IMG/VR virus record: IMGVR_UViG_3300001525_000272
Coordinates: 22,184 to 86,183 of that record
Length of the DNA stretch: 64,000 nt
Direction: 5' to 3' (one strand)
From: a virus
Lineage: Duplodnaviria; Caudoviricetes
The translations under genes were made by a program, and so were the position numbers. The notes below the pieces were generated by a model, which made no database searches, was not told the DNA's origin, and was given only the letters and a program-made list of their open reading frames with translations. Below, one piece after another: positions 11,083 through 55,734 of the stretch. The number at the start of each line of letters is the position of its first letter. Position 1 is the first letter of the stretch.

Positions 11083-12228
11083 TTAAACATAGTATCTAAG
11101 ATATATTGCCATATAGTAAGCAATAAAGTTTCTTGATACGCTCTTACTTTGTATAGTAAGACCATTATACCAATTCTGAAGTTGTAATTTATCAACTAAC
11201 ATTAATTGGATATCATCTATAACCTTTTTGAAATAAACTTGTTGTTTTGTACTCTTTATAGCCATCAGACTTCTAATGTAATCTAAAAACTTAGTTTGCT
11301 TAATGATTTGGAGGTCAGGGAGCGTTTTAAGCAACAAGTAATATCCTAACTTAATGTTTTCTATGAACGCAGGTTGGGCTAAATTTTCGGCATATTGGAT
11401 AGCAAGTTTTCTGTTGAATTTAGTAATAGAAGTTGCTTGTTGAATGGCAACACTATTACGTTTTCTATAGATACACATATCTTCTGCTATCTTATTTATA
11501 AATGCTTTCAGTTTGGTTTCTTTTGTAGTATCCCAATCTTGTTCATCTCCTGTAGTATTAGAAGTCTTCTTTTTATAGATATCATAATACTTATTCATCA
11601 ATGATCTAATAGATTGTTTAATTCTATTCTTTAAACTATAAATCATTGAAAAGATCTTATTACTATCATCTTCAACCAATGCTGTTTTGAATTTGGTAAA
11701 TACATCATTACTGAAATAGATGATACTTGCAGCAATAGTTTGTTTCTTTCTAAACATATGATTTTGAGAAAGACTTTCTAACGCTGATTGAAATACATCA
11801 GGTAAACATAATGCTTTTTTATTACCGCTACGTTTGGATGTAGTAAAATGATACAATGTATTACTGTAAGTTCTCAAAGAAAACAAATGAAATGTTGCTT
11901 GTGCACCCATTAAATTATTTACTTCAAGATACTTTTGAGTTATCAAAACAAGTAATGTTGTATATGGATCATGTACTAATTTAAACTGACTTCTTTGTGG
12001 TCCATACTTCTCCATTGAATATTGTAATAACAATTTCTCGTTTGTATTACACATATGAAGAAGATCTTTGAATATGTTACTAGTTTTTGGATAATAACAT
12101 GATTCAATAAGATTACTAAACTCAAGAGAAACATGATTGACTATATAACGATAAAGATAATCCAAATCTATTACACTAATGATTTTCTTATCATCAACTA
12201 AACTCTTGATTACAAATGTTCTTTTCAT
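11083..12228 (-). CDS. hypothetical alpha-helical protein
   Basis: 381-aa ORF directly downstream of the baseplate wedge gene; no motif recognised. Confidence 0.7.
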   Translation of the reverse strand: MKRTFVIKSLVDDKKIISVIDLDYLYRYIVNHVSLEFSNLIESCYYPKTSNIFKDLLHMCNTNEKLLLQYSMEKYGPQRSQFKLVHDPYTTLLVLITQKYLEVNNLMGAQATFHLFSLRTYSNTLYHFTTSKRSGNKKALCLPDVFQSALESLSQNHMFRKKQTIAASIIYFSNDVFTKFKTALVEDDSNKIFSMIYSLKNRIKQSIRSLMNKYYDIYKKKTSNTTGDEQDWDTTKETKLKAFINKIAEDMCIYRKRNSVAIQQATSITKFNRKLAIQYAENLAQPAFIENIKLGYYLLLKTLPDLQIIKQTKFLDYIRSLMAIKSTKQQVYFKKVIDDIQLMLVDKLQLQNWYNGLTIQSKSVSRNFIAYYMAIYLRYYV

Positions 12229-12242
12229 TCTATAAATTCCTC

Positions 12243-15200
12243 TTAAACTCTTTCAATTTGAACAGTTACAGTTGATTTACTATAATCGGATTCACTGCTA
12301 GATTTGCCTCTAAATCCGATATATTGTGGAGTAAAATCAAGCATTTGTTTTTGAGTTAAATCATCAATTGTATAATCAAATCTGATATTAAATTCAGGAT
12401 TCAAAATTTCGGCATATACAACACCAGATATACTTCTACAAACCTTTAAGAGTTCAGAAATATCTATATTTTTCTGAATACCAATTTTTGATTGATAATA
12501 AGTAGTCAATGCATCAATAATTTCATTAGTAATAGTTTCATCAGATTTACTAACTACTGTATTATCAACCTCGATTTTAACTTTGATATCTAAAGGTATA
12601 TTATATTCACTTACATTCTTCCACGTTCTACCAGTCCATACAAGTGTATTATAATATCCATCAGAATCAAGTTCATCCTTGACTCTTACATACATACCTC
12701 TCTTTGGTTCAATTAATTGATATGTATATGTATAATTTGGAGCATCACCACTTACTAATCTTAAAACTATATAACCAAGATATTCACTCAGAGGTGTCTT
12801 ACCCATCTCATCAATAAATCCATTGGCTATATAATATATACCACTTTGACCAGCTGTTGCCGCTGGATCTGTTTTACTTCCGCTACCATAATCAGTATTA
12901 ATGATTACGTCAGTTGGAATACTTTGTGTATCACTATCCCACCATGGAGTATTATCATATCTTGATTCTACTGTATAAGAAGGTGTATTATATTTCAAGT
13001 TAGTCATTACACCATATGTATCACAGAATTTTATGTTAATAAAATCTGTCAACATCTTCTTATCAGTAAATGACAAAGAAGTTATAAGTTTTTGCATTAC
13101 ACTCAATTCAAAATTACTACTTCCTGTATTACTATCACTTTCAACAATATCTTTATAATATGATTTGAGAATTACTGGAACGTTATGTAATCTACAACTA
13201 CCATCTTCATTGAATGTTATTGTAGACTCCATGAAAGTATCAAGATTTCTTCTAATGATTACATCACAGTAATAAGTATGAAGACTGCTCCAAGCCATCT
13301 GAACTTTAGTATTTGATTTTCCTGATACTAAGTTTCCTTGTGCATCTATAATTATACTTCCATCTGTTCCAACAAATGATCCATCAAGATTTCTCTTTGG
13401 TCCCCAAGCTTCTATATCAAATTCAAATCTTTGTAATCCATCTGGAACATTTAAATAGTTATCAATAGTCCAACCAAACGAAGTATATGCACCATCTGAA
13501 TTCTTTGTATATGTATACCCGTATGCGGCAGTAGCATCATATACTTTATTATCACCCCATTTGGTAGTCATTGTTGCCTGGAATGTTTGAACATTAAAAC
13601 CACCATAATTATCAAACAAATTCTTTAACTGATATGCTGTCATGTTATTTTCATTATCAATTGTAGAATTTTCTTGAACATTATGATTTACTTTGAATGT
13701 TACATTTACAGCATAATTAGTACTAAGTGTTGATTTTCTACTAGTATTTATAGAGAAACTACAACCGTTTCCTGTAATATAACTATATTTATCATAGAAA
13801 CTATCTCTAATTTTACTATATTTAGAAACCGGTGTACCGTCTACACTTTGAAGCATATAGTCATATGATGCTGTTTTAGTAGTTCTGTTTAATGTCATAT
13901 TAAACAGTGTTATAAAAGTATCATTTCCTACATCAACATCTGTATTTCTCATGATAGTAAATTCATTACTATCACTTGTCCATTCTGTATTGGATATATC
14001 TATGTATGTATTTCTAGTTGGAACTATTTCATTTACATTATTTGCAATGTAATTTAATGTAGTAAACACCATCATTTCATTACATTTAATATCACTTCTC
14101 TTCAATATCGGATATGCATTTTTTATTGGTAAATCATTTCCACATATTGTAGTTATATCATCATAATCATTATCACTAACCAATCTCTTCTTAGAAGAAA
14201 GATTTACGATTGCATTTTGTTTAATTTCTGGTAAAGTTAAAAGATCTAAACCACCATATGCTGCTGATGGGTTATTGATAGTAAATGAAACCGTACCAGT
14301 TCCACTAGAAGAGTTTTGATAAATCGTATCACCATCAGAGATAGTATTTGAAATTACATTACCTGTTGATCCTTGTGTTATATGTAATCTCACAGCTATA
14401 ATAGATCCCGGAGCCGGTTGCTTACCAAGGATACCATTACCAAACATAATCTCACCCTTATTATAACCACCAACCCAACAATATTGAGTTTTCTTGGCAG
14501 TCATACTATAAATACCATTTACAGCTTCTTCCCATTTAACCCAGTTACATATATTACCAGCACTATCATACATTTCTTCTGTCGGATCAAATGTTTCAGG
14601 ACTCAGGGTTCCATCAATACTTGAATCAGAAGTATTAAGTTTTTGGTTAATGGTTGGAGATATTACATATACATCAAGATCACTAACCTGACCTTCATAT
14701 TCAATTGGTATATTATAATACTGATCAGTACTCAAATCATCTGGTACATTGAATATCTTTAACTGAATATCCTTCTGTATAAATGTAAGATAGAAATATG
14801 CAGTTTTACCATCTGATGAAAGATATACCGGTTTATAGTTACCATCACTATCTCTTACATTGAGAATACTATTATTAATAACTTTGGCTGTAATTTCATT
14901 AGTAATCAATGTATTATTTACATTTACTTTAGCAGCACTTACACTATCTAATGAATCACTCTTAATCATGAATGGAATATCTCCAGCTCTTGCATGAAAA
15001 TATGGAGATATTGTGAAAGAAGCCTGACTTGTTGTAAATTCAAGATTTACACCCATAAGCAAATCTACTTGTGCTGGTGTAGCCTTTGGTATTACATAAC
15101 CAATCCATTTTGCAAGATTTGATACAGATTCTGTTAATTGAGCATCAACAAAGAAAAATTCTTTATAAATTGTTGCATCATAAAAGATATGATTGGCGGA

Positions 15201-31626: not shown

Positions 31627-31658
31627 AACTAACCCAGGTTATTAAACCTGAGTTAGTT
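31627..31658 (-). terminator. terminator-like hairpin
   Basis: 14-bp stem with one G-U pair on the minus strand; overlaps the stop of 31653-32174. Confidence 0.6.
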
Positions 31659-32174
31659 GTTGGGATCGAAGGAGAAACAATCGAACACCAACCGAATCTT
31701 CGAAAGGTTGACCTCGGTAGCACCCGTAAGCTTCATGAAGGCCCCGAGGCCTTCAATCTGCCTTTGTGTAAACGTCGGATTTCTCCTTTCTTCCTCGGCT
31801 TTCTGTTGTTCGAATTCTTGCTTCTTAACCTCTTCGGCCTTCTTTTCCTCAAAGAGTTTTTCTTTGAAGTGAGCCAAGATCCTGGCATGAAAGTTATACG
31901 TTCTTCCACCAAAATCCCGCTCTTTGGATTTTCCCATTGCACGAGCCGTCGCTAACAACTGAGCATTCGACGCCTCCAAAAAAGACGTCGTATTGGGAAA
32001 CTGGTTCATGATCCTCAGTAGCCTACTGGCGATCACACGCGAAACTGTGTGATTGTCAGCACAAGAATTGACGAACTCGCGAATTTCTTCACGAGAGATT
32101 GATCTCATCATCATTTGTTTGGTTCTTTTTTGTTGTTGACATTGACGAAAGACCACAATTAATCTTTCATTCAA
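31653..32174 (-). CDS. hypothetical protein with elevated GC (true start may be near 32114)
   Basis: Hairpins on both sides; coiled-coil EEKKAEEVKKQEFEQQ; 30/60 G+C at 31681-31740. Confidence 0.65.
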   Translation of the reverse strand: MNERLIVVFRQCQQQKRTKQMMMRSISREEIREFVNSCADNHTVSRVIASRLLRIMNQFPNTTSFLEASNAQLLATARAMGKSKERDFGGRTYNFHARILAHFKEKLFEEKKAEEVKKQEFEQQKAEEERRNPTFTQRQIEGLGAFMKLTGATEVNLSKIRLVFDCFSFDPNN

Positions 32175-37014: not shown

Positions 37015-37027
37015 AAGATTTAATTTT

Positions 37028-37068
37028 AAAAAGTGGTCACCTAAGTTTTAGTTAGGTGACCACTTTTT
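37028..37068 (-). terminator. intrinsic terminator
   Basis: Perfect 17-bp stem aaaaagtggtcacctaa/ttaggtgaccacttttt with A/T tracts on both sides. Confidence 0.8.
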
Positions 37069-37077
37069 TAAATCATA

Positions 37078-37791
37078 TTAAATACCGCACTTGAAACAAG
37101 TATTCTCGATCTTAATGCAGTAATTAATATCAATAATCTCATTATTCATGAAAGCAGTGACAATATCACGAATCTGACCAATATCATCAGCCTTCATGAC
37201 CTTATCATAGATACGGCCACCTGCCACCTTGAACGTAAGTTTTGCCATTTCCACATCAACTCGAGGAATTGCAACACCATTGTTCCTGTATCCAACCTTG
37301 CCTCCACGAGCCTTAAAGTACGTAAGAGATTCGATTGTGATACCTTCAGGATTCTTGATATAGCAGAACGTGTTATTCTTGGAAACATAGATACTGACAG
37401 TAGGACTTTTGATAATAATACCAGAAAGAAGAACCTTGATTTCAGTAATCCCGTCAGCAAGATTTGACGGAATCATATGATTCTTACAATTGAATGAAAA
37501 CGGAACACCATCTTTATCGATACCAACAAGGATTCCCTTGGTATCATTAATATCAGTACCATCATCAGCAAGAGTCAGATTGACTTTCTTCCAATTATCA
37601 ATAAGATTAATATTGTTATTAACAAGATCGAACACCTTTACGCATTGATCAGCCGGAATAAAAAGCTGAGATTTTTTCTCCTCCATATCAGCAACTTCTT
37701 CCATATCAGCGGATTCCATTATTTCAGGAGCCATTCCGCCACCATTATCATTAGCAATATCCATAGCAGCAGCAATCTCTTGTTCAGACAT
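37078..37791 (-). CDS. hypothetical protein with acidic N-terminus, high-expression-like codon usage
   Basis: AAAGGA RBS before ATG 37791 (MSEQE); many C-ending codons; followed by a terminator. Confidence 0.7.
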   Translation of the reverse strand: MSEQEIAAAMDIANDNGGGMAPEIMESADMEEVADMEEKKSQLFIPADQCVKVFDLVNNNINLIDNWKKVNLTLADDGTDINDTKGILVGIDKDGVPFSFNCKNHMIPSNLADGITEIKVLLSGIIIKSPTVSIYVSKNNTFCYIKNPEGITIESLTYFKARGGKVGYRNNGVAIPRVDVEMAKLTFKVAGGRIYDKVMKADDIGQIRDIVTAFMNNEIIDINYCIKIENTCFKCGI

Positions 37792-37905
37792 TTTTAGTTT
37801 TCCTTTTTTGTTTAGTTGAATGAAACCGACTGCTGGGGTTTTTAATTTACCCAACAGTCGGTGTTATTTTGGTTAGTACAATCCAATTATTTCTAATTAC
37901 AAAAG

Positions 37906-45932: not shown

Positions 45933-48548
45933 CTAAAATGGAAATACTCGATCTGGTTCAAAATCTTCTGTCAAAGCGTGGGTCACTAACGTAATACTAC
46001 GATTGTCCTCTGATTGAATTTTCATGCTTTGTGCAAAGAGTTCTCTGCTTTCTGAATCCAAAGCATCAAACACTTCGTCGTAGAAGATATGACTAAATCT
46101 TTTTCCATACAACTTTTCAGCAAGGGATCTTAAAGCAGCCATGCAGCAAAAATCGATAATTCGTTTTTCACCACCTGACAATTTCTTGTGTCCAGTTGCA
46201 CATTTAATATTGTGAACAATGTTGATAGAGAATTTGTCTCTAATTGTACCTGATTTAGTTTCTGACAGTGTGTCAAACGAAACCGTAAATATACCAGGAC
46301 AAACTCGATCTAATTCATCTCTAACACATTGATTCATATGAGGTATTGCTATATCAATTAGCATACTCTTAATACCACTATCAGAAAATGCTGATTTCCA
46401 AAACTCAAGAATTTTTAATGTCTTATCCAATTCACTTTTAGTCGCTTTAAAATCTTTCAACTTATTTTCATCTTCATTGATTGATTTTTCAAGCGAGTGT
46501 AATGTTTCATCAGAGACATGAAATTCTTCTTTGATTTTGTATTCAGACTGTTTTCTATGTAATTCATCTTTAACAGCTTGAACTTCTTGTTCTCGAACCT
46601 TCGATTGTTTTAATTGAGATTCCAATTCTTGAATTGCACAAGAAGTCTTTTTCTGAATATCTAATTTTTCAGATTCTTTTGAACTTATCGAATTATTGAT
46701 ATCTTCACTTTCTTTTTCAATGTTCTTGTTATATTCTTGTGAAGTAGTTATCAATTTATTTTTTGCATTATTAGTATTCAGTTCTATACATTCATTCTTT
46801 GTTTTAATACTGTCTTGTATTTTACTAACATTCTTGGTGTGATTATTCTCAATCACATCAAGTTTAGTTGAATACGTAGAATCTATTTCTTTAAGTTTAG
46901 AGTCTTTATCAGTTTCCAAGTTTTCAAGTTGAGAAGTCTTCTCAGCTCGTTTCTTATCAAACTGTTCTTTCTTTTCTTTATATTGATTGAGTTTTTCTGT
47001 CTTATACTTTTCAAGATCAGAATTACAGTTATTGATTTCGTTTTCTAAATCTTTAATCTTCTTATCAATATCCACTGTATCGTTATTTAATTTGGATATA
47101 TTAGAAGTCTTTTCGTTGATATCCTTTTCCAATGCTTTTTGCTCTTCTTTTAATCTATCAAGATTAATTAAAGGCTGTCCACATTTATCACAAATTGGAG
47201 TATCAGAATTCAGTTGTTTGGAATTCGATTTATATCTATTTTCCAAATCATTTACAGATTGTTTAATATGAGAAATATCTTTAGTGATATTCTCTTTCTT
47301 AATCCTAAATTCAGATTGATTTTTAGTTATCTCTGAAATTTTAGAATTAACATCTTGTTGTTTAGAAAGATAATCTGTTCTGACTTTATCTTTCTCAGAA
47401 AGAATTTCAGTCTCTAAATCTTTAATCTCTTGTTTTAAAACTAAAATCTTCTCATCAAATTCCTTATTCAATAGTAACTTAGAATTATTAGTATCATTTA
47501 CGATATCAGATTTTAATTTCTCATATCTGTGATTCTCATTATTCAAATCTTCTTCTAATTTCTTAATATCATATTTTACAGGTTCATTAACTTCATCAAG
47601 TTCTTCTTTAACCTTCAATTTAAAATCAGAAAACAATTTCTGATATTTCTCTTTTATACCACCAATTTGAAGATTGAGTGAATTGATTTCGTTATCAATA
47701 TTGTTTAACTTGATTTCTGATTTAGATTTGGTTTCATTAATCTTCTTATCAAAATAAGAACTATCACCAAACAAATCTTTATCAGATTCATATTCTTTTA
47801 ATTTCTTATTACAGGATTCTATATCAACTTTAAGTTTCTCAATCTCTTCTTGATTGATCTTCTTAAGATTTTCAATATTCTCTTTTTCATGATTGACCAT
47901 TCCCAATTTCTCAGAAATGTTATTCTCAATCATTTTAATTTGTAATTCACACTGATCAAGTTTCTGTTCATATTCCTTGATCTTTTCTCTGCAATTGTCA
48001 TAATACTTATCATAATCACTCAAATCAAGAATTGAATCAAAGATTGCTTTCTGTTCACTATTGGGTAAAGCAGTAAAGAAATTCTTTGCTTGTTGAGTGA
48101 AATAGTATATGTTATGATAAACTTCCTTTGGAATAATAGTCTTTTCGATTAATCGATAAGTATCCATTTTTCCATTGGCAGATATATCCTGACCATTCTT
48201 AATAAACACTAACTTGTTATTCATCTTAGTATGTTTGTGATAAAGATGAATTTCATATTTATCACAAACATTAGTAATGGTATCGGTTCCTGTAAAGAAC
48301 AGGTGAATCTCAAGATTCTTACCCACTCTTTCATTCACCATATCATCAATACTCAACTTCTCATTTTTGACACCACCATCTTCACCATATAAAGCCATAG
48401 AAACAGCTTTAAGAATAGTCGATTTTCCAGCTCCAACTTTACCGGTAAAAACCGTAACTTTACCAAGTGGAAAATCCATTTCCATACCATCATCACCGTA
48501 ATTTCTTACATTACGAAGTTTAATCTTTTCTACTACAAAGTTTATCAT
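45933..48548 (-). CDS. sbcC: SbcC/Rad50 (T4 gp46-like) SMC ATPase
   Basis: TGKVGAGKST, Q-loop YFTQ, long coiled coils, Zn hook CDKC, LSGGEKR, FYDEVFDALD, LVTH. Confidence 0.93.
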   Translation of the reverse strand: MINFVVEKIKLRNVRNYGDDGMEMDFPLGKVTVFTGKVGAGKSTILKAVSMALYGEDGGVKNEKLSIDDMVNERVGKNLEIHLFFTGTDTITNVCDKYEIHLYHKHTKMNNKLVFIKNGQDISANGKMDTYRLIEKTIIPKEVYHNIYYFTQQAKNFFTALPNSEQKAIFDSILDLSDYDKYYDNCREKIKEYEQKLDQCELQIKMIENNISEKLGMVNHEKENIENLKKINQEEIEKLKVDIESCNKKLKEYESDKDLFGDSSYFDKKINETKSKSEIKLNNIDNEINSLNLQIGGIKEKYQKLFSDFKLKVKEELDEVNEPVKYDIKKLEEDLNNENHRYEKLKSDIVNDTNNSKLLLNKEFDEKILVLKQEIKDLETEILSEKDKVRTDYLSKQQDVNSKISEITKNQSEFRIKKENITKDISHIKQSVNDLENRYKSNSKQLNSDTPICDKCGQPLINLDRLKEEQKALEKDINEKTSNISKLNNDTVDIDKKIKDLENEINNCNSDLEKYKTEKLNQYKEKKEQFDKKRAEKTSQLENLETDKDSKLKEIDSTYSTKLDVIENNHTKNVSKIQDSIKTKNECIELNTNNAKNKLITTSQEYNKNIEKESEDINNSISSKESEKLDIQKKTSCAIQELESQLKQSKVREQEVQAVKDELHRKQSEYKIKEEFHVSDETLHSLEKSINEDENKLKDFKATKSELDKTLKILEFWKSAFSDSGIKSMLIDIAIPHMNQCVRDELDRVCPGIFTVSFDTLSETKSGTIRDKFSINIVHNIKCATGHKKLSGGEKRIIDFCCMAALRSLAEKLYGKRFSHIFYDEVFDALDSESRELFAQSMKIQSEDNRSITLVTHALTEDFEPDRVFPF

Positions 48549-48678
48549 TTTGGATTTTTCCCTTAACGTAATTTTTGAAACCAGAATAACATTCTTTACA
48601 TAATATTATATCATCCAATCTTTTGGATCTGGAACGACTAACTTTAGTATCACAACTTATACATGTTTTCTTATTCAT
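48520..48678 (-). CDS. 52-aa C4 zinc-finger protein (not in the ORF track)
   Basis: MNKKTCISCDTKVSRSRSKRLDDIILCKECYSGFKNYVKGKIQNDKLCSRKD*; ATG overlaps the sbcD stop (ATGA) and the end overlaps the sbcC start. Confidence 0.7.
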   Translation of the reverse strand: MNKKTCISCDTKVSRSRSKRLDDIILCKECYSGFKNYVKGKIQNDKLCSRKD

Positions 48679-49739
48679 TCTTTTTTCGATTCCAAAAGAT
48701 TCATGTCTTTCAGAATTTTAAGATATGATTCCTTATCATCAATTTCTTTGATATCCAAATATTTCTCGCATTGTTCTATTTTTGACTGAGTAATATTGAT
48801 ACCACGATTAGTAATATCAACCTCAGTATTTTCAAGAACAATCATATCACCAATAGATTCTTCTTGAGTTGCCTTAATCTTCGTCTTATTAATAACTCTT
48901 ACGTTATTACCTTCAGATTTTAATTTCTGAGCCTTATTAAATATCTCTTTTCTTTCTTCATTAGTAGTATTGGTTGTTATTACAAATTCATAGAATTTTG
49001 CAACACCGGGAACATTTAAGGGAACTTCTTCAACCTCTAATGTCTCTGTATCAACAATAAGAAACCTCTTATCTTCATTCTTGTCATTCCAATCTTTTGG
49101 AATGAGTGAACCAACATAATACACTCTTGTATTATTTCCATTCAGATTCTGTGGTTTATGATAATGACCAAGAATAGCCAACGGAAATTGACTAATATCA
49201 CTTATCTTTAACTTATCAACCCTACTCAAACCAGATTGAAGAACTGCTTCATTCAATCCAACATGAGCATACAGAATTTTTGGATGTTTCTTTTCAATTT
49301 CCATTTGAAGTTTTTCACTCTTCATTTTCTCAAGAAAACTATTAGTGAAAGGAACTATGACACCATTGAAAAGTTCACTCACTTCTGGTTCATATAAATA
49401 AGTAGTAACATTCGGAAACTTACTAAATACAGCAATAGCACTCTTTTGATGTTCACCTGTAGAACTCAAATCATGATTACCACTAAACATATAAAACTGA
49501 CAATCTTCATTGGATTTGAAAATGTCAGTTAACATATTTTGTGATTCATTATAGATAATGGTTTTATCATTATAGATATCACCAACAATCATAAAATGTT
49601 TAATATCATGTTCTTTACCATAATTAATGATATACTCAAGAGATTGTTTAATGTAATACAATCTCTTGGGATAATCATTAATCAAAGAATCGTCACTAAA
49701 TCCACTTGCATGGATATCACCAATTGCTATGATTTTCAT
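48675..49739 (-). CDS. sbcD: SbcD/Mre11 (T4 gp47-like) nuclease
   Basis: Metallophosphoesterase motifs AIGDIH, VGDIYN, SGNHD, YAHVG, LGHYHKPQ. Confidence 0.93.
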   Translation of the reverse strand: MKIIAIGDIHASGFSDDSLINDYPKRLYYIKQSLEYIINYGKEHDIKHFMIVGDIYNDKTIIYNESQNMLTDIFKSNEDCQFYMFSGNHDLSSTGEHQKSAIAVFSKFPNVTTYLYEPEVSELFNGVIVPFTNSFLEKMKSEKLQMEIEKKHPKILYAHVGLNEAVLQSGLSRVDKLKISDISQFPLAILGHYHKPQNLNGNNTRVYYVGSLIPKDWNDKNEDKRFLIVDTETLEVEEVPLNVPGVAKFYEFVITTNTTNEERKEIFNKAQKLKSEGNNVRVINKTKIKATQEESIGDMIVLENTEVDITNRGINITQSKIEQCEKYLDIKEIDDKESYLKILKDMNLLESKKE

Positions 49740-49746
49740 TTTTCAT

Positions 49747-50490
49747 TTAGATTGTGAATTGTGGAATATCATCATCTTCATCATCAATAATATCATTCCC
49801 AGAGGTGTACTTCGTGAAGTCCATACCCCTGATACTCTTGTTGAAACCAGATAAATGAGGCGGAGCAATTCTAACTTGCTCTTGAAATACCGCTTTACCC
49901 TGACGAAACATATTACGCTGATTATGACACGAAATCATATCAACGTTTACCTCTTTACGAAGTTCATGTTTATTAACTACAATTTGAAGAGTAGTCTGAT
50001 ATCTCATTCCATTCGGAAGAGGAATATTTATAATACCAGTTACAAAATTTCCACCTTCAAACAGAATTGAAAGATCATGATTAGAGTTGATATAATTATC
50101 ATCAACACTACTAAATGATTTAATTCCATTTGGATGTTTATGAAATACTCCGGTATATCCCGGTGTTGCTTCTGATTTAAAATCAACAGTAGCTCCACCA
50201 ACAACTTGTTCCGGAATCATAAAATCATCAACTACAACATTACCCTTATTATCCCAATGCCATTTGACATAACCACCAAACTCATTGGATGTAGCAAATT
50301 TCTTATCAACACAGTATTGAAGATCTCTAACTTTTTCAATAATACTATAATCAATGATACATTTGATCTTCTTTAATGGTTTGGATGTATGATTCACCCA
50401 TTCACCATTATGAGATGTTATATCATCTTCAATTTCATTATCAAATGTTGGAATATCAAGTTCTTCGCAATCATCAATTTGATTGTTCAT
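49747..50490 (-). CDS. JAB/JAMM (MPN+) metallo-isopeptidase
   Basis: Upstream Glu (SNEFGGY) plus exact HxHx7SxxD, HKHPNGIKSFSSVD (50101-50142). Confidence 0.88.
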   Translation of the reverse strand: MNNQIDDCEELDIPTFDNEIEDDITSHNGEWVNHTSKPLKKIKCIIDYSIIEKVRDLQYCVDKKFATSNEFGGYVKWHWDNKGNVVVDDFMIPEQVVGGATVDFKSEATPGYTGVFHKHPNGIKSFSSVDDNYINSNHDLSILFEGGNFVTGIINIPLPNGMRYQTTLQIVVNKHELRKEVNVDMISCHNQRNMFRQGKAVFQEQVRIAPPHLSGFNKSIRGMDFTKYTSGNDIIDDEDDDIPQFTI

Positions 50491-50496
50491 TTACTG

Positions 50497-51303
50497 TTAC
50501 TCCTCTGTTTCTTTTTCTTTCTTTAAGATGTCAAGAATTTCATTGTGATCATAGTTACCAACTTTATTGGAACAACACTGAATGATATTCTGGCATCCAA
50601 AAGTTACACAACAATTTAATCTACCATATTCATCTCTACCATTTTTTGTAGTAAAATTATGTATAAATGGCATATCGTAGTTTTCAATATCATCAATAGT
50701 ATATTTAATTTCATCTGTGATAAAACCAGCACCAAGAGCATCATTTACTGCAATTGCTGCAATAATCTGAGATGATCCAATATAAGATGGAATCACATGA
50801 TAACCACCACCACGCTGAGTCCAAACTTTAGTCAATCTCGGATTACCATCAATTGTCATAGATGTTCCATCATATCCGATCTTATATAACTTACAATTAA
50901 AGTCATAAAGATCATCATAGATATCATCTCTGCAATCCATGATTAAACAATTCTTGTCATAGACGGATTTATCAAATATTGCTTTGTTTGCAACAGTTTC
51001 TAATAATTTTGGACTAGTCAATTCTTTATAAGTTTCAACAACCACATCACTTCTTCTTTCAAGAATTTGATATTTGGCTGCATCAACTTTATGACTATTA
51101 ATGTCACAATATCTGAAAATAGTTCTATTAAGATTTGATTCCTCAATAGTATCAGGATCTATTAAATGCAAACAATCAACTTGTCCGCTTAATGCCAGAT
51201 CCAATGCAACCCAGTTTCCAATACCACCAAGACCAACTATAATAGCATGGTTATAATGAAGTAATTTTAGACTGGATTGCCTTGAATAAAGTTCAGAGTT
51301 CAT
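50497..51303 (-). CDS. E1/ThiF-MoeB family adenylyltransferase
   Basis: LYSRQ, VGLGGIG, IDPDTIEESNLNRTIF, KVDAAK, IMDCRD. Confidence 0.9.
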   Translation of the reverse strand: MNSELYSRQSSLKLLHYNHAIIVGLGGIGNWVALDLALSGQVDCLHLIDPDTIEESNLNRTIFRYCDINSHKVDAAKYQILERRSDVVVETYKELTSPKLLETVANKAIFDKSVYDKNCLIMDCRDDIYDDLYDFNCKLYKIGYDGTSMTIDGNPRLTKVWTQRGGGYHVIPSYIGSSQIIAAIAVNDALGAGFITDEIKYTIDDIENYDMPFIHNFTTKNGRDEYGRLNCCVTFGCQNIIQCCSNKVGNYDHNEILDILKKEKETEE

Positions 51304-51481
51304 CTTCTTGATTCTCCGAAGTAATTGTTTGGTTTGTATTTTTCTTTTTCTTTACTCTACATTTACATGATTTAATAGACTCTCCTGTACTTATATTCAT
51401 AAAATCTATCTGTTTAATATTTCTATTTTCATCTATTTTAGTAACAACTACATCAACTTCGTATGAAGATGTGTCAATCAT
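51293..51481 (-). CDS. 62-aa hypothetical protein within the conjugation operon
   Basis: Overlaps both the E2-like stop and the E1 start. Confidence 0.55.
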   Translation of the reverse strand: MIDTSSYEVDVVVTKIDENRNIKQIDFMNISTGESIKSCKCRVKKKKNTNQTITSENQEDEL

Positions 51482-52979
51482 TGATTATCTCCACATGAGT
51501 TTCAGTGTCTTCATCTGGATCAATATTTTTAGCAGTTGAATCTTCTTCATCTTCAAATGAAACATCCGTTAACTTTTCATTATCACCAATATATTCCTCA
51601 TCAATTTCAAAATTACTAGAAACATCTATTGTAGAATGTGCAAGAACTTCTTCAAGATTGGATGAATCATATGCACTATCAAAATTAATAAGATTGAGTA
51701 ATGCTTCGCAACGATTGAGATTTTCCCCCAATTTCCTAACATCAGTCAATGAAATCTTTCCAGAAATATCACCCATACAAACATTACCGTTATTTGTATT
51801 TGGATGATATCCTTCACAATACATTTTACCATCTGTAGTTATAAATATCTTATCAATATGATAGGGATTCTCTTTCCAATTCGGATCGATATTCCGTATT
51901 TTTCCTTTGTAATTAACTTTCATCGGAATAATATGGACTTCTTTTTCCCAAGCAATCCAACCATCAAACTTTTGATCAGATACAATCCAACCAGACATTT
52001 CGAATTTATTACCATACATCAAACCATTACTAAACGCTGTATCAATATCCTTTTGTAATGATTGATATTTTTTGGCCAGATAAGAATCTAACAATTGTTT
52101 ATATGAATATTGATTATTGATTCCCCATCTGGTATCTTCTATATATCTTTTAATTTGTGTATTTATCAATTCTTTAATTTTACTAAGAAGAACACTAACT
52201 TCATCGCAATCATTAAACAAATCGATATGCTGCGGTTCAATAATAGTACATTCCTGGGAAAGATTATTTAATCTAGCTACAAGAAACTTTCCAATTCTTT
52301 CTGTAAGTTCCCCATCTACCCCCATTATATTACTTCTGAAAAACAAACTGTTTGCATTTGCAAAGACAGAAATCAATCTGATTACTATCTCTTTGAATCT
52401 ATCATAACTAACAGTTCTTCTCAATTTTTCAAGAATTACTTGATCGAGATAAAGTATACCATACCTATCAATAAATCCAATTAAGAAATTCTTTTCACCA
52501 ATGAAAAGAAGTTTATAAATATAAATATTAAGTTTGTCTAAACTAGCATGGATTCTATTAGTCTCTACATAATATGAATCATAGATATTATTTGCATTAT
52601 AATGATATCCTTCGATTTTTAAATCAAAATCAATATTGGCTCCAATATAGAAAAATCCTCTGCCATTTTCTCTATATTTATTATTAAACATAGTAAGAAA
52701 ATCTTGATTGGGATTCTCATTATAATTATTACGTCTCCATTCATAGTGCCAAGATATATATCTTGCTATAAAAGTCTTATTAAGTCTAACCAATCTAATC
52801 CATGAAGAATTATCTAAAAATTTGATTCCAGTAGAATTCTCTTGTGGTATGTATCCGTTTTTGGCTTGAAAACTACCACAAGAAACAGAATTCTTCAAAT
52901 AAGCAATATCATTCTTGTTTGAAACAATATCATATATGATTTCAACCAATGACATTTCTTTTTGATTTTCGGTTTGCAT
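51474..52979 (-). CDS. large protein with C-terminal E2/UBC-like domain
   Basis: YCEGYHPNTNNGNVCMG (51777-51806 is HPN-x6-C, UBC-like), followed by a helix with LLNLINFDSAY; directly upstream of E1 and JAB. Confidence 0.65.
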   Translation of the reverse strand: MQTENQKEMSLVEIIYDIVSNKNDIAYLKNSVSCGSFQAKNGYIPQENSTGIKFLDNSSWIRLVRLNKTFIARYISWHYEWRRNNYNENPNQDFLTMFNNKYRENGRGFFYIGANIDFDLKIEGYHYNANNIYDSYYVETNRIHASLDKLNIYIYKLLFIGEKNFLIGFIDRYGILYLDQVILEKLRRTVSYDRFKEIVIRLISVFANANSLFFRSNIMGVDGELTERIGKFLVARLNNLSQECTIIEPQHIDLFNDCDEVSVLLSKIKELINTQIKRYIEDTRWGINNQYSYKQLLDSYLAKKYQSLQKDIDTAFSNGLMYGNKFEMSGWIVSDQKFDGWIAWEKEVHIIPMKVNYKGKIRNIDPNWKENPYHIDKIFITTDGKMYCEGYHPNTNNGNVCMGDISGKISLTDVRKLGENLNRCEALLNLINFDSAYDSSNLEEVLAHSTIDVSSNFEIDEEYIGDNEKLTDVSFEDEEDSTAKNIDPDEDTETHVEIIND

Positions 52980-53010: not shown

Positions 53011-53051
53011 AAAGGTTGCTCCTATGACTTTAAATCATAGGAGCAACCTTT
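53011..53051 (-). terminator. intrinsic terminator between the Ubl and E2-like genes
   Basis: Perfect 17-bp stem aaaggttgctcctatga/tcataggagcaaccttt with a 7-nt loop. Confidence 0.8.
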
Positions 53052-53070: not shown

Positions 53071-53739
53071 TTAGGCACCCTTGTCAATCTTCTCAATCTT
53101 CATAGAAACAACATCAGACATCTTAATATCATTCACGCCATTGATCTGACCGACCTTCGCTTGAGTGATGGTAGTAGCGGTCATGTTATTCTCTTTGGCG
53201 AACGTATGACAAGCCATGATGAGTCGCGCAGGAGTATCAACGATATATTTGGGTTGATCATTGATGATAACCAAAGTCATACCCTGTTTGACAAACACAG
53301 TTTTCTTCTTACCATTGCTGCCAACAATAGGAAGAATCACACGTGCACCAACCTGACCAGACTTGTTGGTATAAGGCTTGATAACCTTATAATCCTCAAG
53401 CTCTTGATAAACATCTTCATCAATAGCAACATCAGTCATTCTTCCGGACTCGGGAATGACCTTGCATTCGCCAGCCTGTGTGTTATCAACAACCTCATCA
53501 GAAGTGTTGGTTGCGGCAACAGGAACATTCTTAGTTTTCTTGGCTTTCTTTGCAATCACAGTATAAACCGGGAATCTGCCAGAAGCATCGCAAGCAACAG
53601 TATCATTATCAACAAACTCATTAATAATATCCTGAATCTGAGAACCCTTGCTCAAACCCAGCTTCTTTGCTATTGCAGTAGCAGACTGCGGAAAAGAAGT
53701 AATAGCAGCAAGAACTTTATCAGGGGTAATGTTAGCCAT
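53071..53739 (-). CDS. winged-HTH + putative ubiquitin-like (beta-grasp) domain protein
   Basis: N-terminal KVLAAI..SATAIAKKLGL..IQDIINEF wHTH; C-terminal beta-beta-alpha-beta pattern ending IKMSDVVSMKIEKIDKGA*; AAAAGGA RBS before ATG 53739. Confidence 0.6.
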   Translation of the reverse strand: MANITPDKVLAAITSFPQSATAIAKKLGLSKGSQIQDIINEFVDNDTVACDASGRFPVYTVIAKKAKKTKNVPVAATNTSDEVVDNTQAGECKVIPESGRMTDVAIDEDVYQELEDYKVIKPYTNKSGQVGARVILPIVGSNGKKKTVFVKQGMTLVIINDQPKYIVDTPARLIMACHTFAKENNMTATTITQAKVGQINGVNDIKMSDVVSMKIEKIDKGA

Positions 53740-53764
53740 TTTTTGTTTCCTTTTGTTGTTTTGT

Positions 53765-54622
53765 TTAACTAACCTTATTTTCAATTCTTAAACAATTAAC
53801 AGAATTTTGATTAATATTGTACTTATCAGCAGCAGTACGACCTCTGTTAAACGAAGAAAGATCAATTCTTTTTGATTCTTTGAGTTTTTCAGATTGAGCC
53901 TCTTGTTGCTTAATGAATAACTTTATTTTATCTCTTACGTATTTCTTGTATCTATTTAATTGAACCAACTCGTTTGTCTTTAAAATCAAATCAAACGATT
54001 CTGGTTGATTATCAAATTCTTCATCATCTTCAAGATCATCTATATCTTGAAATCCACTATCTGCTTGTTCATGTTTTTTAATCTTCTGATATTCTTGTTT
54101 TTCTTCTATAACAGCTCTTTCTAATAATCTTCCAGTAAATCCTTCTACAAAAGATCTCCAATTGGTAAAATTACCATTTACAGATCTTTGATGTTTGTAT
54201 CCAAGTTTGGATGCTGTACTCTTGAAAAACTTATACATATCAACACATCTGGAGATATCTTGTGCTTCTCCTATGAAATTGATATATAATTGCTTTGCTG
54301 AACGATTTGTTTTGTACTTTCTCAAAATACATTCTGTATTGCATACAATATTAATCAATTGGATTAGATTTTGTATCCATACAGGAAGATCATTTGCTAT
54401 GAACTTTTCACATTCTTTTTCTATTATGAAAATTTCATTATCAGAGATTGCATTCTCTGTAAGTACAGTTGACATATCAAGATGATGTTTCCTCATCAAA
54501 TTAAAAGCCAACTTTAAAGCAACTTCAGCTTCAGCCTCAGATTGAATCTTTTTACAACCATCATGTTTAATTAAAAGTTTCTTAATACGATCTACTATTT
54601 TCTTATCTGTTTTTTCAGACAT
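53765..54622 (-). CDS. DUF2786-like protein
   Basis: KIVDRIKKLL..EAEAEVALKLAFNLMRKH, FIGEAQD, SFVEGF, SFNRG. Confidence 0.7.
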   Translation of the reverse strand: MSEKTDKKIVDRIKKLLIKHDGCKKIQSEAEAEVALKLAFNLMRKHHLDMSTVLTENAISDNEIFIIEKECEKFIANDLPVWIQNLIQLINIVCNTECILRKYKTNRSAKQLYINFIGEAQDISRCVDMYKFFKSTASKLGYKHQRSVNGNFTNWRSFVEGFTGRLLERAVIEEKQEYQKIKKHEQADSGFQDIDDLEDDEEFDNQPESFDLILKTNELVQLNRYKKYVRDKIKLFIKQQEAQSEKLKESKRIDLSSFNRGRTAADKYNINQNSVNCLRIENKVS

Positions 54623-55230: not shown

Positions 55231-55734
55231 TTATCTTTTACATTTGTTAAGAGTAAAGATGCCGATACCGATCAAGAGATCCTTATAGCGATTCGGGAAA
55301 TTACGATGATTCTTAATGAAAGCATCATAAGCAGCAAACTCGCTACGACCTCTCCATTCAACCTCATAAGTATATCTATTCTGATTATAATTCAGAAGAG
55401 CATGATAATGAGTAGCTCTGAAATCATTACGATTATACTCAGGAAGACGTATATCAGCAGCGTTCAAGAACGAGAACGAAACCTTTGCGGTCTTCTCCCC
55501 ACGATGGACAAAGATACCAATTGCAGGAGAACCCCAATCAAAGAATCTGCAATCTTTCTTATTAAGATTCATAGATTCCATCAATTCACGAACCTTAACT
55601 CTACTAGATTTCAACTGGAAACGAATTGCATCTCTATTTTTAAGAGATTTTTCAAATTTTTCAATAATAGTATTGATTTCATCCGACGTTCGACCAGTGG
55701 TTTCGAGCTTGGCACGCAGTGTCTTGCTATCCAT
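55231..55734 (-). CDS. hypothetical protein with elevated GC
   Basis: 167-aa ORF; 30/60 G+C at 55441-55500. Confidence 0.65.
   Translation of the reverse strand: MDSKTLRAKLETTGRTSDEINTIIEKFEKSLKNRDAIRFQLKSSRVKVRELMESMNLNKKDCRFFDWGSPAIGIFVHRGEKTAKVSFSFLNAADIRLPEYNRNDFRATHYHALLNYNQNRYTYEVEWRGRSEFAAYDAFIKNHRNFPNRYKDLLIGIGIFTLNKCKR

Follow-up and report, generated by a model that had tools for sequence, protein, structure and literature searches.

To our knowledge, the prokaryotic systems for conjugating ubiquitin-like proteins (Ubls) that have been characterised, namely type II CBASS, Bil and Bub, are all bacterial anti-phage defences. Bacterial Ubls, including those of Bil, can bear extra N-terminal domains (PMC11601603); the word 'winged' does not occur in that paper. 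CD-NTases encoded with Cap2 and Cap3 in type II CBASS have a Gly or an Ala as their last residue, and that of E. cloacae, which has Ala there, is conjugated (PMC10097602). Here we describe a locus on a 64,000-nucleotide stretch of a Caudoviricetes virus (IMG/VR record IMGVR_UViG_3300001525_000272; the whole stretch is called the window) in which a phage appears to carry a system of this kind. A gene on the minus strand, at 53071-53739, encodes one protein that combines a winged helix-turn-helix (wHTH) domain with a ubiquitin-like domain and a KGA end, as had been observed in an original prediction made from the sequence alone. Sequence comparison and structure modelling suggest, with a probability of roughly 0.7, that this gene encodes the ubiquitin-like tag of a phage-borne conjugation system. 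The order of the tag gene and its neighbouring enzymes is kept on four distant phage contigs and the tail is conserved family-wide, in support of the proposal that the protein is the cognate tag of those enzymes.

The putative tag family and its C-terminal tail

53071-53739, minus strand: tag gene (wHTH-Ubl), 222 residues; ATG at 53739 and TAA stop codon at 53071-53073, set from homologs
53746-53752, minus strand: Shine-Dalgarno-like AAGGAAA (AAGGA box), 7 nucleotides before the ATG, read from the sequence
53557-53739, minus strand: Z-alpha/Z-beta-like wHTH domain, residues 1-61 (structure model, fold search and family profile)
53389-53556, minus strand: linker, residues 62-117, variable in length and sequence among homologs (model confidence, charges)
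53287-53388, minus strand: three-strand beta meander before the beta-grasp, residues 118-151, with conserved G-Y ... P-x-G (domain model, conserved columns)
53074-53286, minus strand: ubiquitin-like beta-grasp, residues 152-222 (domain model; fold search matches to SUMO, ISG15, the parkin Ubl and PB1)
53074-53082, minus strand: tail codons K220-G221-A222, with Ala222 as the predicted adenylation site (clade invariance, family tally)

The start codon of the tag gene is placed at the ATG at 53739, where the N-termini of 14 homologs align; the program-made open reading frame (ORF) begins further upstream, with a TTG at 53784. Relatives were sought with a word-indexed search and a profile search of 1.84 billion representatives. 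The first returned 14 relatives of 45-96% identity, none of which is named or has a Pfam domain, and the second returned 84 clusters at E <= 0.001 (representatives at 50% identity), mostly of 185-230 residues and matched end to end. The architecture is common to about 90 relatives, and all of them come from metagenomes or viral contigs. Hidden Markov models built from the close clade detect one wHTH and one Ubl in 71 of 98 family proteins; the others include the members with a doubled wHTH that are described below, and those that remain are either fragments or score too low to be detected.

Several further collections were searched. Neither the window protein nor two distant relatives gave a tblastn match in 50,697 GenBank phage records, and a scan of IMG/VR with the close-clade alignment found no relatives. 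A metagenome scan returned a single 1.3-kb fragment, and a search of sequencing runs listed no RNA run and a single DNA run, in which 6% of the words occurred. A pattern scan of 185,579 species genomes found no relative, a weak negative given its limited sensitivity.

Mean column identity across the family is 18%, and the C-terminus is its most conserved feature. Residues K220, G221 and A222 are invariant in the 15 close homologs, three clade members adding AE or M after the Ala, and 91 of the 98 family proteins carry [N/D]-K-[A/G]-[A/G] at the C-terminus, with 0-15 variable residues behind it. The C-terminus on whose conservation the original prediction had depended is thus conserved well beyond its own clade. 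The endings are KAA (37 proteins), KAG (32), KGA (15) and KGG (4), with three others. No residue follows the motif in 54 proteins, one follows in 26, two or three in nine, five in one and 15 in one, and the first residue of these extensions has 13 different identities. The Gly of the KAG clade does not vary, and one to three further residues follow it in 13 of that clade's 19 members. The homolog on contig L003, one of the four contigs considered below, has a real 14-codon extension after Ala-Ala.

Such a pattern is that of a 'GG-like' end which consists of two small residues and may be followed by a removable pro-peptide. Since conservation stops, and the extensions begin, after the second small residue, the mature and activated end is most likely Ala222. 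It had been proposed that the JAB peptidase encoded nearby may trim the terminal Ala to expose a Gly. The tail statistics led us to reject this idea: the extensions start only past the second small residue, and most relatives, whose endings are chiefly KAA or KAG, have no Gly at the position that would be exposed.

The ubiquitin-like domain

In the full-length AlphaFold2 (AF2) model, residues 64-113 are disordered, with a predicted local distance difference test (pLDDT) score <50, and a structured C-terminal part follows. The linker in which they lie carries a charge of +5 over residues 62-75, directly after the wing, and of -10 over residues 76-117. Residues 110-222 were modelled alone with an 81-sequence alignment, which gave a pLDDT of 89.3 and a predicted TM score (pTM) of 0.77. 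The modelled elements are strand b1 (155-159), strand b2 (162-167), a helix (170-183), strands b3 and b4, strand b5 (210-217) and a five-residue tail. The strand and helix segments in the model include TLVII, KYIV, PARLIMACHTFAKE and VVSMKIEK. The original prediction had read a wHTH, an acidic linker, a beta-grasp and a short tail from the letters alone, and the strands and the helix do fall on the segments that it named.

The fold of this model was compared by VIA with 48,161 representative PDB chains, with no Foldseek prefilter. The top 50 rows are essentially all ubiquitin-like domains (Z 6.0-6.8, rmsd 2.2-3.0, 62-72 residues), among them the NBR1 PB1 domain (Z 6.7), the parkin Ubl (6.5), Smt3 (6.5) and ISG15 (6.3). 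Ubiquitin-like domains were again obtained when Foldseek's top 1000 were re-scored. The last residue of the model aligns to residue 98 of Smt3 and to residue 76 of ubiquitin-type chains, which are the mature C-termini of those proteins. Foldseek E-values are weak (at least 0.08); its rows include PB1, a multi-ubiquitin-domain protein, ThiS and the bacterial BilA-type Ubl 8tyx/8tyz (E ~0.09-0.2), and Foldseek against BFVD gave nothing usable. On this modelling, we accept residues 118-222 as a predicted beta-grasp with a three-strand N-terminal extension.

The resemblance is one of fold. The tag protein has no match at E <= 1 to the Pfam models for ubiquitin, BilA (DUF2604), ThiS or MoaD. When 81 family members were compared at E <= 0.1 they matched 98 families in all, and none of these models is among the 25 matched most often. 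Nor does it match a ubiquitin-like family in NCBIfam, PHROGs or PADLOC.

The enzyme cassette

51474-52979, minus strand: 501-residue protein with a C-terminal E2/UBC-like motif, HPN-x6-C (51777-51806), from a 14-homolog alignment
51293-51481, minus strand: 62-residue ORF between the E2-like and E1 genes, from the ORF list; no separate counterpart ORF in L003-L006
50497-51303, minus strand: E1/ThiF-family adenylating enzyme, 268 residues, without a conserved catalytic Cys (Pfam ThiF, 3.9e-19)
49747-50490, minus strand: JAB/JAMM metallopeptidase, 247 residues (weak Prok-JAB match, 0.006)

Downstream of the tag gene lie genes for an E2-like protein, an E1 and a JAB peptidase. The window was compared with four IMG/VR contigs of 51-236 kb, L003 to L006, which came from pattern scans and whose tags belong to the KAA and KAG clades; these tags are ~20-30% identical to that of the window over the C-terminal half. 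The order tag, E2-like protein (443-729 residues, with HPN...Cys), E1, JAB is identical in all five loci. The genes upstream of the tag differ: a DUF2786 gene in the window, L003 and L004, a helicase gene in L005 and another gene in L006. The first of these, a DUF2786/DUF7168 gene (phrog_421), directly precedes the tag gene at 53765-54622 in the window, 7130-8008 in L003 and 7094-7954 in L004, and in L003 it overlaps the start codon of the tag.

In the E2-like protein, H392, P393, N394 and C401 are invariant across 14 homologs, together with flanking UBC-core-like residues. Neither the 501-residue protein nor its 14-member alignment matches Pfam, PHROGs, PADLOC, NCBIfam or PDB sequences, and the Atlas rows offer weak leads (UQ_con with a TM score of 0.40, UEV with 0.38, and Prok-E2_D on 11% of one cluster). 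The E2-like proteins of L003, L004 and L005 are longer at the C-terminus than that of the window, L006 being the exception. In the JAB peptidase the JAMM motif is complete, with E70, H117, H119, S127 and D130 invariant in all five loci.

The E1 has PADLOC matches to Cap2-type E1-E2 proteins (to 2e-12), and its nearest PDB sequences are PaaA (1.2e-14) and MccB. It is far under the cut-off for any named family in NCBIfam; among the PRTRC models (TIGR03734-TIGR03742), TIGR03736 gave 15.8 bits against a cut-off of 144.75 and no other matched. Across the five loci the ATP-binding G-x-G-G-x-G, the Arg of SNLNRT, a Lys and the Mg motif DCRDD are invariant, and the sole invariant Cys is the one inside that metal-binding motif.

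An E1 that has no conserved catalytic Cys, and whose nearest solved relatives are PaaA and MccB, would also suit a sulfur carrier or another acyl-adenylate chemistry without conjugation, of the ThiS/MoaD/CysO/QbsE or MccB/PaaA type. The C-terminus would then be turned into a thiocarboxylate or otherwise modified, and JAB would only trim. Iyer and colleagues are said to have described, in 2006, sets of E1, JAB and Ubl genes in sulfur-transfer pathways, and genes linked to 7-deazaguanine lie nearby here (folE in the window and a QueC-like gene in L006). Against this stand the large protein with an invariant HPN...Cys, which is kept in every locus, and the lack of a rhodanese, a cysteine desulfurase or a CxxC zinc motif in the E1. 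Sulfur carriers are, moreover, small, single-domain proteins with a Gly-Gly end, whereas the tag has a wHTH, a long linker and, in the family, mostly an Ala end. We consider such chemistry distinctly unlikely, and retain conjugation of the tag as the preferred explanation for the cassette.

The record from which the window is taken is an 86-kb IMG/VR virus sequence with a CheckV completeness of 27%, which implies a genome of ~300 kb. The window also encodes a large terminase, a tail sheath and tail tube, a multisubunit RNA polymerase, a DNA ligase, GTP cyclohydrolase (folE) and SbcCD. Genes for SbcD (Mre11-like) and SbcC (Rad50-like) directly follow the cassette in four of the five loci (window 45933-49739, L003 13523-14551, L004 12310-16354, L005 9350-12953), which may reflect a functional link or mere conserved gene order. 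In L006 an SbcC-like gene is found upstream of the cassette instead, and the region after JAB (11537-13830) encodes a 563-residue amidotransferase/QueC-like fusion, whose QueC match of 3e-18 is below the cut-off, and a short ThiF-like protein (200 residues), the second in that locus. Genes with a Ser-rich N-terminal tag (MK.R.S.VSNSSSSSF...) precede the cassette by a few kb in L003 (3899-5910) and L004 (4558-5163).

The winged-helix domain

Residues 1-61 of the tag have the topology H-b-H-H-b-b in the full-length AF2 model, with a pLDDT of ~84. The best VIA match is the viral Z-alpha domain 1sfu (Z 8.6, rmsd 1.9, 63 residues); the VIA rows for this domain are wHTH proteins only, and the Z-alpha score is tied with those of ArsR, MarR and IclR regulators. 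Foldseek against the PDB with the whole-protein model gave mostly wHTH matches, and an Atlas search gave only DUF1627-type wHTH leads, below 0.9. When the family profile was compared with all PDB sequences, the top match was ADAR1 Z-beta (E 3.6e-4; 1.8e-3 for the isolated domain), followed in the marginal zone by the winged helices of RPA32 and several Z-alpha domains. The Pfam z-alpha model (PF02295) gives no match to the window protein and weak matches to eight of 81 family members, the best at 0.0033. Six or seven relatives, among them P0024, P0027, P0032, P0035, P0038 and P0046, carry two wHTH domains in tandem before the Ubl, an arrangement that recalls the Z-alpha/Z-beta pair of ADAR1 and ZBP1.

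The residues through which Z-alpha contacts nucleic acid, which we take to be K169, N173, Y177 and W195, were mapped onto the tag by profile alignment. The K169 position corresponds to the invariant Lys31 and that of the wing Trp, W195, to the invariant Tyr59, while N173 and Y177 correspond to Gln36 and Asn40, both variable in the family. The Z-DNA contact set of helix-3 Asn and Tyr plus wing Trp is thus not kept. The earlier description of a Z-alpha-like domain lacking the Asn, Tyr and Trp contacts holds for the resemblance and for the first two residues, but not in full for the third, where an aromatic residue is retained. Z-beta is not known to bind Z-DNA, and on sequence comparison the wHTH of the tag resembles Z-beta more closely than Z-alpha. 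Helix 3 is acidic family-wide, and the net charge of the domain is -1 in the window protein and +0.3 on average in the family. Z-DNA-specific binding was considered and rejected as unlikely because the Asn and Tyr contacts are missing.

A wHTH fold is typical of regulators, and the five loci come from one broad large-phage lineage that shares other gene order as well (SbcCD and the Ser-tag genes). The protein might accordingly be an ordinary phage transcription factor, its C-terminal domain serving as an oligomerisation or ligand-binding module and the enzymes being adjacent through inherited gene order. This we regard as very improbable. Conservation is highest at the last three residues, in a family of ~18% column identity, and the C-terminal extensions start exactly past the second small residue. 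In addition, helix 3 is acidic, and the order of the cassette is kept although the genes upstream of it differ (DUF2786 in three loci, a helicase gene in L005, another gene in L006).

A reading closer to the preferred one follows the logic of CBASS. The effector would be the wHTH protein itself, which might, for instance, regulate the DNA metabolism of the phage; the enzymes would switch its activity, location or oligomeric state by joining its C-terminus to a partner or to its own copies, with no general tagging. The conjugated protein of type II CBASS is indeed the effector enzyme itself, with a Gly or Ala end (PMC10097602), and the PADLOC matches of the E1 are of the Cap2 type. The wHTH is kept in at least 71 of the 98 members and doubled in six or seven, and the cassette adjoins SbcD/SbcC in four of five loci. 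Unlike a CD-NTase, however, the protein contains a real beta-grasp, and the chemistry would be the same in either case, the two readings differing only in which partner carries the function. We judge the effector reading unlikely, and the protein is treated below as a tag for other proteins.

Expression signals

53011-53051, minus strand: perfect hairpin with a U-run between the tag and E2-like genes, likely a partial intrinsic terminator (folding energy; same place in L003-L006)

The tag gene is separated from the enzyme genes by a hairpin at 53011-53051, which the original prediction had described as a perfect terminator of 17 bp and which comprises 19 consecutive pairs. Its folding energy is -28.8 kcal/mol (z = -7.25), and none of 200 shuffled sequences was as stable. 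A run of four U follows on the gene strand; a simple terminator scan missed the hairpin because it demands five T. In L003 to L006 a comparable GC-rich hairpin and U-rich stretch, of unrelated sequence, lie in the 60-90-nucleotide gap between the tag and E2-like genes, so that in each of the five loci the tag gene is followed by a strong hairpin and a U-run. Hairpins of this type also stand after the tail sheath and tube genes of the window, which suggests that these structures act like ordinary terminators of the phage.

The codon usage of the tag gene is unusual, as had been noticed at the outset from its many C-ending codons, which it has in common with the sheath and RNA polymerase genes. 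Its GC content is 0.417 against 0.314 for the window. The frequency of A at four-fold sites, 0.08, is the lowest (tied) of the 60 window genes, and G/(A+G) in Lys, Glu and Gln codons, 0.72, is the highest. In synonymous codon bias the gene ranks first of the 60, above those for the RNA polymerase, the sheath and the tube. Its Shine-Dalgarno box is also better than that of the E2-like gene. These signals appear to give good support to the proposed excess of tag over enzymes, with the hairpin found in five of five loci and clear codon bias in three of five.

Three genes encoding proteins of unknown function, at 55231-55734, 31653-32174 and 37078-37854, avoid A-ending codons as the tag gene does, and a strong hairpin (37018-37078) follows the last of them. 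These three genes may be highly expressed or belong to the temporal class of the tag gene.

Proposed mechanism and significance

In the mechanism that we propose, E1 would adenylate the carboxylate of Ala222. The acyl group would then pass straight from E1 to the E2-like protein, at its invariant Cys401, and on to an amino group of the target, direct transfer being proposed because the E1 has no conserved catalytic cysteine. The JAB peptidase would remove the C-terminal extensions of 1-15 residues that some relatives carry, and would reverse conjugation. Attenuation of transcription at the hairpin would leave more tag than enzyme. A target protein, once conjugated, would carry a Z-beta-like winged-helix module, and this module may bind nucleic acid through a conserved Lys/Arg/Tyr surface on the wing, or else a protein partner.

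Put together, and more tentatively than its parts, this would describe a jumbo-phage lineage with a complete Ubl pathway of its own, in which an abundant tag activated at its C-terminal Ala is passed from a Cys-less E1 to an E2 Cys. The Z-beta-like wHTH payload of the tag would give proteins of the phage or its host, perhaps of the SbcCD recombination/replication module, a handle for binding nucleic acid or a partner.

Several observations weigh against this account. The E2 assignment is made at the level of a motif, HPN-x6-C, together with gene context. The chemistry of the E1 could differ from thioester transfer, since it has no conserved catalytic Cys, and since PaaA and MccB, its closest relatives of solved structure, modify peptides. 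The beta-grasp Z scores are moderate (6-7), in a range where common arrangements also occur. Binding of DNA by the wHTH is doubtful, given its acidic helix 3 and a mean domain charge of about 0. Finally, the codon bias that is clear in the relatives L003 and L005 is weak in L004, and L006, a contig of 26% GC, does not show it.

If the account is correct, a conserved and apparently strongly expressed system owned by phages would reverse the picture of prokaryotic Ubl conjugation as defence only, and tagging would become part of an infection programme. A tag with a wHTH module would add a binding function to its target rather than only mark it, and it would end in Ala rather than Gly. With four genes the system is small and easy to reconstitute, so that minimal transfer from E1 to E2 without an E1 cysteine is directly testable.

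Comparison with known systems

Full-text literature searches found no description of a phage wHTH-Ubl conjugation system, and neither a survey of 224 jumbo-phage genomes (PMC7824862) nor a 2026 review (PMC13282480) mentions such a system. The type II Bil system (BilABCD, with an ISG15-like Ubl; Chambers et al. 2024, 8tyx/8tyz; Hor et al. 2024) likewise has separate genes for Ubl, E2, E1 and JAB, and its Ubl is a beta-grasp. The phage tag, by contrast, shows no membership at the level of sequence (no DUF2604 or ubiquitin Pfam match), and its tail ends in Ala or Gly after Lys where that of Bil ends in Gly. The phage tag also has a winged-helix N-terminal domain, the E2-like domain stands at the end of a 440-730-residue protein, and the E1 has no conserved catalytic Cys. 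The phage cassette has replication and recombination genes around it, in jumbo phages of the lytic type, rather than lying in a bacterial defence island.

In type II CBASS, the activated end of the CD-NTase is Gly or Ala (PMC10097602), as in the phage family, there is a JAB partner (Cap3), and the best defence-library matches of the phage E1 are to Cap2-type proteins. However, E2 and E1 are fused in Cap2 and separate in the phage, and the phage protein does not qualify as a CBASS substrate, being a true beta-grasp with no nucleotidyltransferase domain. Cap2 has both E1 and E2 catalytic cysteines, whereas none is conserved in the phage E1. Bub (Ye et al. 2024, PMC11601596) also has an E1 without a catalytic cysteine, a peptidase-matured Ubl and diverse N-terminal domains on its Ubls; it differs in using oxyester intermediates and serine proteases, where the phage cassette has an invariant E2-like Cys and a JAMM metalloenzyme.

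The N-terminal domain of the tag shares with the Z-alpha/Z-beta domains of ADAR1, ZBP1, PKZ and poxvirus E3L its topology, a Lys at the K169 position, an aromatic residue at the W195 position and, in some relatives, the tandem pair. It departs from them in its acidic helix 3 and at the N173 and Y177 sites, which are occupied by Gln36 and Asn40 and are variable.

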